This document shows, piece by piece, positions 7,404 through 53,596 of a stretch of 64,000 bases of DNA. The position numbers were made by a program, and so were the translations under genes. Under the pieces are notes generated by a model. The model had not been told where the DNA came from, ran no database searches, and saw only the letters and a list, made by a program, of their open reading frames with translations. The first letter of the stretch is position 1, and each line of letters begins with the position of its first letter. Source of the DNA: an uncultured delta proteobacterium (GTDB taxonomy: Bacteria > Desulfobacterota > Zymogenia > Zymogenales > Zymogenaceae); the NCBI GenBank assembly GCA_963809875.1, contig CAWELC010000012.1, forward strand, positions 16,479 to 80,478. Direction: 5' to 3'.

Positions 7404-7496
7404 TACCGTCATTGCGAAGGCACCTCTCTCCCATCAGGGCCCACGAAGCCTGCTTCGTGGGGTGATAGTGGCGCGGCAATCCCCCGACTGTCACCG
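7404..7496. repeat. Composite palindromic intergenic repeat (unit R1 interrupted by hairpin unit R2); same family as 51959..52723
   Basis: taccgtcattgcgaagg [cacctctctcccatcagggcccacgaagcctgcttcgtggggtgatagtg] gcgcggcaatcccccgactgtcacc. The flanks match ccaccgtcattgcgaggg..cccgtggcaatccc.tg.ctgtcacc at 52196-52250 and its reverse complement at 52600-52660. The insert matches the reverse complement of 52540-52600. Confidence 0.7.
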
Positions 7497-50815: not shown

Positions 50816-51547
50816 ATGAAAACCGACCTTAATCTGCTCGTGGCGTTCTGGGGGGGGATCATCAGCTTTGCCTCCCCGTGCGTGCTGCCGCTCCTTCCCA
50901 GCTACCTGACCTTCATCACCGGCATCTCGTTTGAGGATCTCAAGGGCGACGACCGGGCGAGGATCAGGAAGGCCACCGTGCTCCACTCCCTGGCGTTCAT
51001 CGCGGGGTTTACCGTCGTCTTCGTGGCGATGGGGGCGCTTTTCGGGCTCCTCGGCGAAACGCTCTTTGATTTCCGGGATACCGTGAGGCGCATCGGCGCG
51101 GTCCTCATTATCCTCTTTGGGGTCTACATCACGGGCCTGGTGCGCATCCCCTTTCTGGACCTGGAAAAGAAAGTGCACCTGAGGGACAAGCCCGCGGGAT
51201 ACTTCGGCTCGGCCTTCGTCGGGATCACCTTTGCGGCCGGCTGGTCGCCGTGCCTGGGGCCCATCGTCGGCTCGATCCTGGGCCTTGCGATGATCGGCTC
51301 CTCGATGAACGCCGGATACGGGATACTGCTCCTCTTTATCTATTCGCTCGGGCTGGGGCTCCCCTTCCTGATCTCGTCGCTCGCGTTCAACACGTTCCTC
51401 TCCTTCTTCAACCGGTTCAAGCGCTTCATCCCGGTGGTCAACGTCGTGTCGGGCCTGATCCTCGTGGCAATCGGCGTCTTCCTGTTGTTCACCGATTTCG
51501 ATACCATTATGAACCTCCTTTACAGGTTGGGATTTGGATATGACTAG
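50816..51547 (+). CDS. ccdA: Cytochrome c biogenesis / thiol-disulfide transporter CcdA (DsbD transmembrane family)
   Basis: GGIISFASPCVLPLLPSYL, AAGWSPCLGPIVGSIL. ATG at 50816 (MKTDLNLL). Confidence 0.8.
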   Translation: MKTDLNLLVAFWGGIISFASPCVLPLLPSYLTFITGISFEDLKGDDRARIRKATVLHSLAFIAGFTVVFVAMGALFGLLGETLFDFRDTVRRIGAVLIILFGVYITGLVRIPFLDLEKKVHLRDKPAGYFGSAFVGITFAAGWSPCLGPIVGSILGLAMIGSSMNAGYGILLLFIYSLGLGLPFLISSLAFNTFLSFFNRFKRFIPVVNVVSGLILVAIGVFLLFTDFDTIMNLLYRLGFGYD

Positions 51548-51956
51548 GCAACCGCGCAAAAAAGCGCCTGAAGCCCCGCCGGCCCCGTCGGAGTCGCCCG
51601 GCATCACCAACGACCAGAAGAACCTCGCCTTCATCTGCCACCTGTCGGGACTCTTCTGGTTTATCGTACCGGGGCTCAATATTATCGTCCCGCTCCTGGT
51701 CATGCTGATCAAGGGGGGCGAGGACCCCTTCGTCTCCCACCACAGCCGGCAGGCCCTGATCTTTCAGGTGATCATGTCGGTGGCGATGATGGTGCTTTTG
51801 ATCATCGGCGTCGTGCTCATGATCATCCTGGTGGGGTTTCTCTTTCTCGCGGCCCTGTTGGTCGTGGCGATCGTGGATATCATCTTTGTCCTGATCGCGA
51901 CGTTTGCCGCGGCCCGGGGGGAGTGGTACAGCTATCCGCTGATGGGAAGGGTGTAA
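51540..51956 (+). CDS. DUF4870-like small membrane protein
   Basis: FICHLSGLFWFIVPGLNIIVPLLVMLIKGGEDPFVSHHSRQALIFQ. Overlaps the ccdA stop. Confidence 0.65.
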   Translation: MTRQPRKKAPEAPPAPSESPGITNDQKNLAFICHLSGLFWFIVPGLNIIVPLLVMLIKGGEDPFVSHHSRQALIFQVIMSVAMMVLLIIGVVLMIILVGFLFLAALLVVAIVDIIFVLIATFAAARGEWYSYPLMGRV

Positions 51957-51958
51957 AT

Positions 51959-52723
51959 ACCACCCCATGAAATCTTCGATTTCATGGGGGCCCCGGTGGG
52001 AAAGAGAAGGAGAGGGGATTGTGTCTTGGGCGATGGGTGGCACTGACAAGCGAAGCTTGTCAGTGTTTCTTCTTGACGCGGGCACCCTCCGGCTTGGCCG
52101 TGGGACGCGGAGGGGGCCGGTGGGGGGGGGAGGGTTAGTAGAAGAAGGAACCCGATTTCTACCCGTAGGGGCGGCATATATGCCGCCCGCAGAGCCACCG
52201 TCATTGCGAGGGCCCGGAGGGCCCGTGGCAATCCCTTGCTGTCACCGCTTAACGACGGGGTTAAGGCTTGCCCCTTGAGTCGCACCGAAAAGAGAGGAGG
52301 TTCTTCTATACACCAAATTAAGTTTACTAAGTTCGAGACTCTGCAAACTTACCTTAGCGAATAGCACCATCCGCGCAACAACCACCCTCCCAAGCTGAGA
52401 TTGCTTCGTCGCAACTGCTCCTCGCAATGACGGGGGGGGGTTACGGAGGTGCACTCTCGATGACGGGTTCTAATGAAAGGGCGGCATGAATGCCGCCCCT
52501 ACGGGCGAGAAACGGTCTTACCTCAATAGTCAGGGGATAGAACATCACCCCACGAAGCAGGCTTCGCGGGGGCCTCGTCGGAGAGAGCCGCGAACGAGGT
52601 TCCAGGTGACAGTCAGGGGATTGCCACGGGGTCTTCGACCCCTCGCAATGACGGTGGAGTGGGGGTCCGGCTCCTCTCTCTCCCACCCGGGCCCCCATGA
52701 AAGCGCAGTTTTCATGGGGTGGT
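51959..52723. repeat. 765-bp mosaic of nested palindromic repeat units bounded by ~50-bp terminal inverted repeats; fills the whole gap between two convergent stop codons
   Basis: Left end accaccccatgaaatcttcgatttcatgggggccccggtgggaaagagaaggagagg. The reverse complement of the right end is accaccccatgaaaactgcgctttcatgggggcccgggtgggagagagaggagcc. Internal inverted copies of cccgtaggggcggcatNNatgccgccc (52162/52478) and ccaccgtcattgcgaggg..cccgtggcaatccc.tg.ctgtcacc (52196 / reverse complement of 52660). Two G9 tracts. Confidence 0.8.
52041..52074 (+). terminator. Rho-independent terminator embedded in the repeat mosaic
   Basis: cactgacaagc-gaa-gcttgtcagtg perfect 11-bp stem followed by TTTCTTCTT. 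Confidence 0.6.
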
Positions 52724-53311
52724 CTACAATTTCCCCTTCGTCGACAGGACCCCTTTGATCCGCGGGTCGACCTTGACGGCGTCGGAAAGCGACCGGGCGA
52801 AGGCCTTGAAGCAGGCCTCGGCCATGTGGTGGGCGTTCTTACCGTGGTGAATGACGATGTGGACGTTGGCGCGGGCGTGCACGGAAAAGGATTTGAAGAA
52901 CTCCTCGAAAAGCTCCAGGTCAAACTCCCCGACCTTGTCCGACCCGAACTCGACCTCATAGACGAGGAAAGGCCTGCCCGAGAGATCGACCACCGCGGTG
53001 GCCAGCGCCTCATCCATCGGCACCGTGGAGGTGCCGTAGCGCTTGATGCCCGCCTTGTCGCCCAGGGCCTTGTCCACCGCGTCGCCCAGGCAGATGCCGA
53101 TGTCCTCCACCGTGTGGTGGAGGTCGATCTCGCTGTCGCCCGCGGCCTGCAGTGTCAGGTCAAAGAGCCCGTGCCTGGCAAAGAGCTCCAGCATATGGTT
53201 CAGGAAGGGCGCGGGGCTGGACACCCGGTACTTTCCCTCGCCGTCCAGGTCGATGGCGAGCGTGATGTCGGTCTCGGCGGTCTTTCGCGTTACCTCTGCC
53301 TTTCTGGTCAT
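52724..53311 (-). CDS. hisB: Imidazoleglycerol-phosphate dehydratase
   Basis: [57 protein letters not shown] at 53311 (MTRKAEV). Confidence 0.92.
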
Positions 53312-53596
53312 GGTATCCTCGTCTTTAGGGGACCAAATACTCCCTCCCTTCCGGCCAAACAGCGGACAGGAAATAACGCCGGTCATCCGAGGGAAGTCTG
53401 CCTCCTTCTTATATTTCTTTTCGAACAACTCTGTCAAGTCAAATACGATTCAACGCGATGTGAAGAACCGGATGTTAATATTATATAAAAATTTTTATTG
53501 AGAATACGTTTTTCTTTGTCTGTAATCTCTATTTCGTATTATGATGTCTCCCGGCCATTCATTTCAGATTCTTTCGCCACGCTCCCGGAGGATCAT

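Follow-up and report, generated by a model that had tools for sequence, protein, structure and literature searches.

Short hairpin repeats that pile up between genes have been described in several bacteria. In Neisseria, intergenic mosaic elements (NIMEs) interleave the dRS3/NTS repeat, a CGTC-1 member of the repetitive extragenic palindromes (REPs), with other families, and they occur together with the nuclease SsnA (PMC3733652, PMC11893778). CGTC-tagged REPs form a superfamily with a CGTC tag, A-T at the first two pairs, an 8-9-bp stem, a 4-5-nt loop and a short CCA-like tail (Di Nocera 2013, PMC3733652); GTAG-tagged REPs consist of a GTAG tag and a palindrome, and REPs within 20 bp of both of two converging open reading frames (ORFs) have been reported (PMC3733652). 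SsnA is a 94-aa enzyme with the essential residues Y6, Y17 and E64 that cuts only single-stranded DNA (ssDNA), just upstream of a CGTC-type hairpin; Ssn enzymes show no RNA binding, are indifferent to the loop and tolerate extensions there (PMC11893778), and their genes were reported to be flanked by their hairpin repeat (PMC11893778, Chenal et al. 2025). Here we describe a 765-bp non-coding element that fills the gap between the converging DUF4870 and hisB genes of an uncultured delta proteobacterium (Zymogenaceae). It lies in a 64,000-nt stretch of DNA (the window; C12:16479-80478, in which the element is C12:68437-69201) of a metagenome-assembled genome of 12 contigs (G000; 3.77 Mb, 89% complete, ~59% GC). 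Our results indicate that this gap is very probably a NIME-like or bacterial interspersed mosaic element (BIME)-like repeat mosaic, in which ten hairpin-repeat copies are piled up between converging genes.

Like NIMEs, the gap is a large intergenic mosaic of interleaved families, and its CGTC-tagged unit (family C) has a CGTC hairpin, an ATT...AAT stem and a C-rich tail similar to those of the Neisseria repeat. Its GTAG-tagged unit (family B) combines the tag with a perfect 9-bp palindrome, as do the repeats of Escherichia coli BIMEs, of REPtrons, which pair REPs with RAYTs (REP-associated tyrosine transposases), and of Pseudomonas REPINs (PMC2817692, PMC3116915, PMC3733652); here, too, the repeats occur in tens of copies, are extragenic, lie downstream of genes and come close to both convergent ORF ends. 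However, the regular alternation and fixed linkers of BIMEs are absent from the studied gap, and unrelated families are mixed instead.

The repeat families were defined by BLAST and iterated nhmmer searches over the whole assembly, with copy numbers de-duplicated. Results from these searches showed six dispersed hairpin-repeat families in the genome. Family A (76 copies) has the form CACCCC-stem-loop-stem-GGGGGCCCCGAYGGGAGAGA; family B (62 copies) is CCCGTAG-GGGCGGCAT-N4-ATGCCGCCC; family C (98 copies) is CGTC-ATTGC-GAG-[variable hairpin]-GYG-GCAAT-CCCCTGACTGTCACC; family D (22 copies) is a ATGGGTGGCAC-hairpin; family E (46 copies) consists of long GAATTAAGGGGACAC... hairpin dimers and is absent from the studied gap; and family F (5 copies) is the ~59-nt AT-rich palindrome, consensus CTATTCGCTAAATTAAGTTTGCAAAGTTTGAAACTTTGCAAACTTAATTTAGCGTATAG, that forms the core of the gap. 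Exact patterns for A, B and C matched 35, 34 and 36 times, respectively, and reversed-pattern controls never. An earlier note on this DNA would have been refuted had the units been confined to this region; they clearly recur at other places, which favours the repeat reading. The commonest 14-mers of the genome are mostly supplied by these families. The most frequent 14-mers of all are (GA)n and (GGGA)n runs, and A units end in GGGAGAGA-like purine tracts.

Altogether, 309 units fall into 157 clusters, ten of which hold at least 5 units, and the studied cluster, with 10 units over 761 nt, ranks among the top three in size. Its units follow the order A+ D+ B+ C+ F C- B- A+ C- A-, and the spacing between them is irregular (Table 1). 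Parts of this arrangement recur elsewhere: the block of B_L and C_L is 78% identical over 98 nt to C7:48685-48782, that of A_int and C_R is 82% identical over 118 nt to C7:580487-580603, and that of F and C_var is about 70-73% identical to C5:266881-267018 and C5:270301-270430. Some multi-unit blocks are thus common to several mosaics as blocks.

The earlier note had described the gap as a mosaic of nested palindromes with ~50-bp terminal inverted repeats, an embedded terminator, two G9 tracts, a unique lower-GC core and no real ORF, and most of this description held. A repeat finder recovered every inverted pair: the outermost at 51959-52007/52675-52723 (49 nt, 90% complementary), the C arms at 52195-52238/52614-52657 (44 nt, 86%), the B arms at 52162-52188/52479-52505 (27 nt, 93%) and a variant pair at 52195-52211/52420-52436 (17 nt, 94%). 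The ORF ends gave a gap of 767 non-coding bases between the stops of DUF4870 (51956) and hisB (52724), Pfam confirmed both flanking genes, and a crude codon-usage gene caller found no gene inside it. The terminator scan found a hairpin at 52039-52067 followed by a T-rich tail, which is the family D unit, and direct reading placed the G9 runs at 52122-52130 and 52432-52440. The core was the part that failed, for the palindrome at 52306-52364 has four more copies in the genome and others in two relatives.

The orientation of the units in the genome accounts for the appearance of the gap ends. These context statistics used our own crude codon-usage calls (3,386 genes, 81% coding), by which every family is more than 90% intergenic. 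Convergent gaps hold 28-50% of the A-E copies and 4/5 F copies, versus 17% of the intergenic length, and divergent gaps hold 0-9% of the A-E copies (1/5 for F), versus 21% of that length. Within 40 nt of a stop codon, 24 of 25 A units are in the sense orientation (p = 1.5e-6), with a junction that reads stop codon, 1-6 nt, CACCCC. Family C is also biased, with 62 sense and 25 antisense copies (p = 9e-5). Because A sits sense after stop codons and the two genes converge, the ends of the gap look like terminal inverted repeats (TIRs). A_L starts 4 nt past the DUF4870 stop, sense to that gene, and consists of the hairpin CCCCATGAAATC/GATTTCATGGGG, whose arms pair perfectly, followed by GCCCCGGTGGGAAAGA; its DNA fold is -14.1 kcal/mol (z = -4.05). 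A_R starts 2 nt past the hisB stop, sense to hisB. A loose grammar recurs, in which A lies near a stop, B follows A, C follows B in the same orientation (11 cases) and C points at F, and both arms of the studied gap obey it.

The same gap was compared in three congeners (G001, G002 and G003) and in a genome of another genus (G005). In G001 and G003 it is only 120 nt long and contains a single GGGCGGCAT...ATGCCGCCC hairpin and, directly next to hisB, an A-type hairpin that is partly degenerate. In G002 an A unit directly past DUF4870 is followed by a C unit with A inside, a hairpin and two additional genes, and what remains of an A unit lies at hisB; in G005 an A-type hairpin lies 3 nt past hisB. 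The relatives that lack the interior of the gap thus keep A-type hairpins, at the DUF4870 end in G002 and at the hisB end in G001, G003 and G005, so that the ends are independent of the interior; judged from these sequences, they are two independent post-stop hairpins of the converging genes. Copy numbers differ as strongly as the gaps. Exact matches to A, B and C numbered 35/34/36 in G000, 2/1/38 in G001, 22/15/25 in G002, 1/21/18 in G003 and 15/9/11 in G005, and about 0 in the other genomes, which showed that copy numbers are lineage-specific and strongly different between congeners. Dispersed families make up this gap, a 3' spacer that varies and accretes repeats.

The symmetry of the gap can also be read as that of a single piece. 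The earlier note suggested a non-autonomous miniature inverted-repeat transposable element (MITE), here 765 bp with 49-nt TIRs inserted between the genes, and arms that are 90% complementary and lie exactly at both gene ends, an interior that looks symmetric and the TIRs, non-coding interior and intergenic place shared with Correia, ERIC and Nezha elements all agree with it. However, the genome has no second full-length 765-bp copy, since only 60-140-nt sub-blocks recur; no target-site duplication was seen at the gap flanks; A_L is closer to C5:414926 (100%, 36 nt) and C5:436281 (95%, 42 nt) than to A_R (90%); and the end hairpins kept by relatives without the interior, together with the single orientation of stop-proximal A units genome-wide, show ends that are conserved independently of one another. 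An inverted duplication in situ of half the gap would likewise explain why inverted pairs of three families (A, B and C) are nested about a palindromic centre, but each arm is closer to copies elsewhere than to its partner (C_R is 96% identical over 52 nt to C7:580603, its nearest relative, and 88% to C_L), and the halves differ, with D on the left only and A_int and C_R on the right only. In a permutation test, shuffling the order of the ten units gave three nested inverted pairs in ~5% of cases, which is not significant given ~ten large clusters; nested order was non-significant in the other large clusters, where the number of nested pairs is never higher, and an "onion" rule of insertion was dropped on these results (p ~0.05 for the studied cluster). 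The single MITE, which we consider very improbable, and the duplication, which we credit slightly less still, are ruled out because there is no second full copy and the arms are closer to copies elsewhere.

A structured non-coding RNA, whether a transcript of the lower-GC core or a long element of a 3' untranslated region, was also proposed in the earlier note, and the palindromes would then be RNA helices. Consistent with this, A and C units are oriented with transcription, many REPs are held to act as RNA (PMC3733652), and the stems covary. Positions 5-7 and 10-12 of the A stems are occupied by several types of Watson-Crick pair; the inner hairpin of C_R (GGGGTC-GAA-GACCCC) differs from that of C_L (GGGCC/GGCCC) by compensated changes; and the C inner stems comprise 20 distinct sequences in 36 copies, 47% of them with at least 5 perfect pairs versus 5% of shuffles. 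On the other hand, an Rfam 15 scan of 51500-53200 (E<=1) gave nothing credible, the only two matches being at chance level (mir-598, 22 bits against a gathering score of 69; Proteo-phage-1, 20.6 bits against 42); no promoter-like site was found in the gap by scan; and the fold of F in the window is no more stable than those of shuffled sequences (z = -0.81). Furthermore, the C-GAA-G loops, present in 16/36 C inner stems, are of the DNA mini-hairpin type, Ssn enzymes do not bind RNA (PMC11893778), and the mismatches in A stems favour the antisense strand. An RNA locus thus appears improbable. Least credible of all is a chimeric assembly join at the repeats, to which a repeat-rich sequence in a metagenome assembly of 12 contigs might seem open; the locus lies in the middle of a 123-kb contig, it has no N runs, and G001 and G003 share the gene order porin, ccdA, DUF4870 and converging hisB, as does G002 save for the two inserted genes.

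In preferring a repeat mosaic, we considered which enzymes might handle its units. Three genes encode 96-aa single-domain GIY-YIG proteins (C5:417074-417364, C2:178047-178337 and C6:82224-82514; PF01541 at 61 bits, residues 5-77), and all three lie between inward-facing C units 382-430 nt apart. When ~3,380 genes were scanned for inverted C units 200-1,600 nt apart, only 3 others were bracketed, by units 1,040-1,477 nt apart. C units also adjoin GIY-YIG genes in G001, G002 and G003. The resemblance to SsnA extends to the size of the gene product (96 aa versus 94 aa), its single domain and the repeat on both sides, and Y8, Y19 and E66 share the spacing of SsnA Y6, Y17 and E64, as judged from positions and not from an alignment. 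Both in the repeats associated with SsnA and in family C, the loop can vary or be extended. These sequence features suggest that family C probably pairs with Ssn-like GIY-YIG nucleases.

Family C itself agrees with the CGTC superfamily in its CGTC tag, in its A-T-initiated stem and in a wide phylogenetic spread with inverted dimers. Its core, CGTCATTGCGAG...GCAATC, was found at no fewer than 120 loci in many phyla (Alpha- and Gammaproteobacteria, Bacteroidota, Chloroflexota, Planctomycetota, Nitrospirota, Patescibacteria, Bacillota and others), often as +/- pairs 20-30 nt apart, and there are 12 C+ C- pairs in G000. A full-text literature search for the core string returned unrelated primer matches only. 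The superfamily repeats of Neisseria have an 8-9-bp stem and a 4-5-nt loop, whereas in unit C an outer stem of 5 bp and a GAG/G(Y)G internal loop enclose an inner hairpin that varies (3-6 bp), and the tail is CCCCTGACTGTCACC or CTC...; the unit lacks the short CCA-like tail as well and is unlike the four described families. C_L, for example, is built as CGTC-ATTGC-GAG-[GGGCC CGGAG GGCCC]-GTG-GCAAT-CCC..CTGTCACC. A units are nested inside the C inner hairpin in at least 7 places in G000 and in one in G002; besides the second locus of the window (Table 1), these are C5:266761, C6:95736, C7:425040, C5:417474, C6:168817 and C1:28017. Since at least 3 different junction types occur, the nesting arose more than once. 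When the three Ssn-like proteins were compared by tblastn with 120 motif-centred loci of other phyla, 2 matches were obtained, too few for a statistic. One of them, a GIY-YIG homologue with 57% identity on a Planctomycetota metagenome-assembled contig (CAYWBA010000025.1, 5021-5359), directly adjoins a CGTCATTGCGAG...GCAATC unit.

The earlier note had also proposed a REP/BIME array serviced by a RAYT-like transposase elsewhere, and this reading was for the most part supported and proved wider than proposed. B is a GTAG-tagged REP, C brackets the GIY-YIG genes, and D units bracket a 185-aa RAYT-like HUH gene (HVHVI ... YIHGNP) in the congener G001 (L191 1429-1986), as in REPtrons; no B-bracketed RAYT was found in ten genomes. 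A search of G000 itself returned two paralogous Y1/HUH genes (C9:89780-90451 and C11:18756-19400; 223 and 214 aa; PF01797 at ~50 bits; NF047646 at 70 and 65 bits, under the cut-off of 80), but both are bracketed by ~80-nt E hairpins with GGGGACAC and by no unit of the studied mosaic. These two genes fit a TIRYT-like type, because GGGGACAC fits the GGGGWSAS motif carried by the TIRs of the TIRYT class (Di Nocera et al., PMC3733652); they lie outside the mosaic, which sets them apart from REPtrons. E hairpins also bracket unrelated small gene sets, e.g. C6:341-343.6k and C7:131-133k. B units occur as head-to-head doublets 16-24 nt apart. A further subfamily with a GTAG tag (GTAGGGACACGA..TCGTGTCC and GTAGGGACACCACATGTGGTGTCC; e.g. 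C9:5500-5530, C5:761620-761650 and C7:580460-580487) often lies 5-6 nt upstream of an A unit, and its GGGACAC core is similar to the E hairpins around the TIRYT-like genes. Other genes bracketed by A, B or C (lexA and those of a TPR protein and a nitronate-monooxygenase-like protein) were rejected as partner enzymes, since they are ordinary genes of the host. The lexA gene (C7:580670-581467) lies between two dense A/B/C/D mosaics (C7:580215-582019), and contig C1 has near-identical parts of this region (e.g. C1:27826-27867 = C7:581978-582019), pointing to either a true repeat or a duplication in the assembly.

Such a mosaic might arise as follows. The units would act as ssDNA hairpins handled by trans-acting nucleases, Ssn-like for C and HUH/RAYT-like for D and perhaps B, which would copy, cut or recombine them and so drive block exchange and nesting. 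The mosaic would grow by insertion of units or blocks, or by gene conversion, into a selectively tolerant 3' gap, and the landing of A in the apex of C hairpins would be part of this growth. At the RNA level, D, which carries the tag ATGGGTGG, the hairpin CACTGACAAGC-GAA-GCTTGTCAGTG and then a T-rich tail, resembles an intrinsic terminator and would end the transcript of the ccdA-DUF4870 unit, and the A hairpins may protect or end the DUF4870 and hisB mRNAs. We consider these RNA roles evenly poised between acceptance and rejection.

Several results weigh against the repeat-mosaic reading or its enzymatic part. The best PDB relatives of the 96-aa proteins are UPF0213 proteins (E ~7e-4), and NCBIfam holds no specific family for them. 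The published pattern of the Ssn motif (SRM) matched 0/98 C units and was not enriched in G000, with 39 matches versus 32 in a block-shuffled genome. The D-associated RAYT-like gene was not found in G000, an assembly that is 89% complete, and no A- or B-bracketed enzyme gene was found in the ten genomes of the enzyme-bracketing comparison. No U-tract follows the A hairpins, so that a terminator role would not be canonical. On the sense strand, the mismatches in A stems are A.C in 32 cases and G.T in 13, an excess that fits structure on the opposite strand; this asymmetry is treated as weak because the copies are related by descent. The crudeness of the gene calls behind the context statistics is counted on this side too.

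The palindrome at the centre of the gap led to a further, more speculative reading. Besides the window copy, F occurs at C5:266963-267019, C5:269915-269972, C5:270301-270358 and C1:6330-6382, with further copies in G003 and G005, and in 4 of the 5 cases in G000 it adjoins a C unit that points at F. The three copies on C5 bound and subdivide a 3.3-kb island (C5:267020-270300; 34-44% GC), which encodes on one strand a 656-aa nSTAND1/AAA_16 NTPase, a 134-aa Mrr_cat nuclease and a 72-aa ORF and is flanked outside the F copies by ~350-nt inverted B-C modules. In G005 (C7:494.9-497.4k and C37:29.7-31.1k) and G003 (C4:75.5-76.9k), AT-rich islands of 1.3-2.4 kb likewise lie between F pairs, again with a C unit that points at F, and one of these islands encodes a DUF4435 protein. 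The C7 island of G005 is only ~4.4 kb downstream of that genome's hisB. Imperfect palindromes of ~59 nt that bound co-oriented AT-rich cassettes, as at C5:267.0-270.3k, recall the attC arrays of integrons and their clusters lacking an integrase (CALINs). However, F stands at both island ends, and F as an integron attC was rejected, as there is no IntI and there are no R''/R' core boxes: the best match to the integron integrase model TIGR02249 in G000 scored 87 bits against a cut-off of 265 and looks XerC/D-like, and no RYYYAAC/GTTRRRY boxes were seen in F by reading.

The centre of the studied gap, C(+)-57 nt-F-21 nt-C(-), is arranged like the C-bracketed cassettes and the F-bounded islands but contains no cargo. 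We hypothesized that an undescribed cassette system uses it as a docking site, now empty or vacated, an idea that we regard as unlikely. Ssn-like ssDNA cuts at C and recombination at F would then move or swap cassettes, as an integron-like exchange that uses no integron integrase and has REP mosaics as its landing pads. Its basis is the set of F-bounded islands of 1.3-3.3 kb, two of which, among those examined, hold defence-type genes (an Mrr-like nuclease with a STAND NTPase, and DUF4435). Beyond the F palindromes of these islands, CGTC-type hairpins point inward, and it is these hairpins that also bracket the Ssn-like nuclease genes.

The features of the gap and its flanking genes are collected in Table 1. 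Upstream of DUF4870, Pfam identified a CcdA-like DsbD_TM protein. The longest ORF of hisB (237 aa, TTG start) is probably over-extended, with a true start at Met 53311 that would give 195 aa, because the ORFs of relatives begin at the equivalent Met.

Table 1. Features of the window, with positions numbered from its first letter.
Feature	Position	Strand	Evidence or sequence
A_L (family A)	51961..52005	+	nhmmer C12:68439-68483, 45.0 bits
D unit	52032..52073	+	terminator scan; fold -12.1 kcal/mol, z = -4.79
B_L (family B)	52162..52188	+	GTAG-tagged REP, CCCGTAG-GGGCGGCAT-ATAT-ATGCCGCCC
C_L (family C)	52195..52247	+	CGTC-tagged REP
Spacer, ~57 nt	52248..52305		BLAST coverage 1 (self only); no genome paralogue
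F palindrome ("lower-GC core")	52306..52364		nhmmer C12:68784-68842, 56 bits
C_var (family C)	52392..52436	-	variant inverted pair; points at F
B_R (family B, GTAG-tagged REP)	52479..52505	-	inverted pair with B_L
A_int (family A, CCCCACGAAGC/GCTTCGCGGGG subtype)	52546..52585	+	nhmmer C12:69024-69063
C_R (family C)	52604..52657	-	inverted pair with C_L
A_R (family A)	52677..52721	-	nhmmer C12:69155-69199, 41.2 bits
Second locus in the window, C unit with an A unit (7425-7464, -) inside its inner hairpin	7404..7496	+	
DUF4870 gene, left flank	51534..51956	+	Pfam PF09685, 81.6 bits
hisB (imidazoleglycerol-phosphate dehydratase), right flank	52724..53437	-	Pfam PF00475 (IGPD), 213.7 bits

A striking nested palindrome of this kind is an expected by-product of orientation-biased repeats between converging genes, and similar cases can be read in the same way. 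CGTC-tagged REPs, long described without a dedicated enzyme, are here paired with small GIY-YIG genes in an uncultured lineage, in a repeat form that is invisible to the published Ssn-motif search. The three Ssn-like proteins and the hairpins that flank their genes are candidate enzyme-substrate pairs; in some of these hairpins the loop contains a second repeat. Finally, the REP mosaics are linked to palindrome-bounded, AT-rich defence cassettes, and this link, if true, would bear on the exchange of defence islands.

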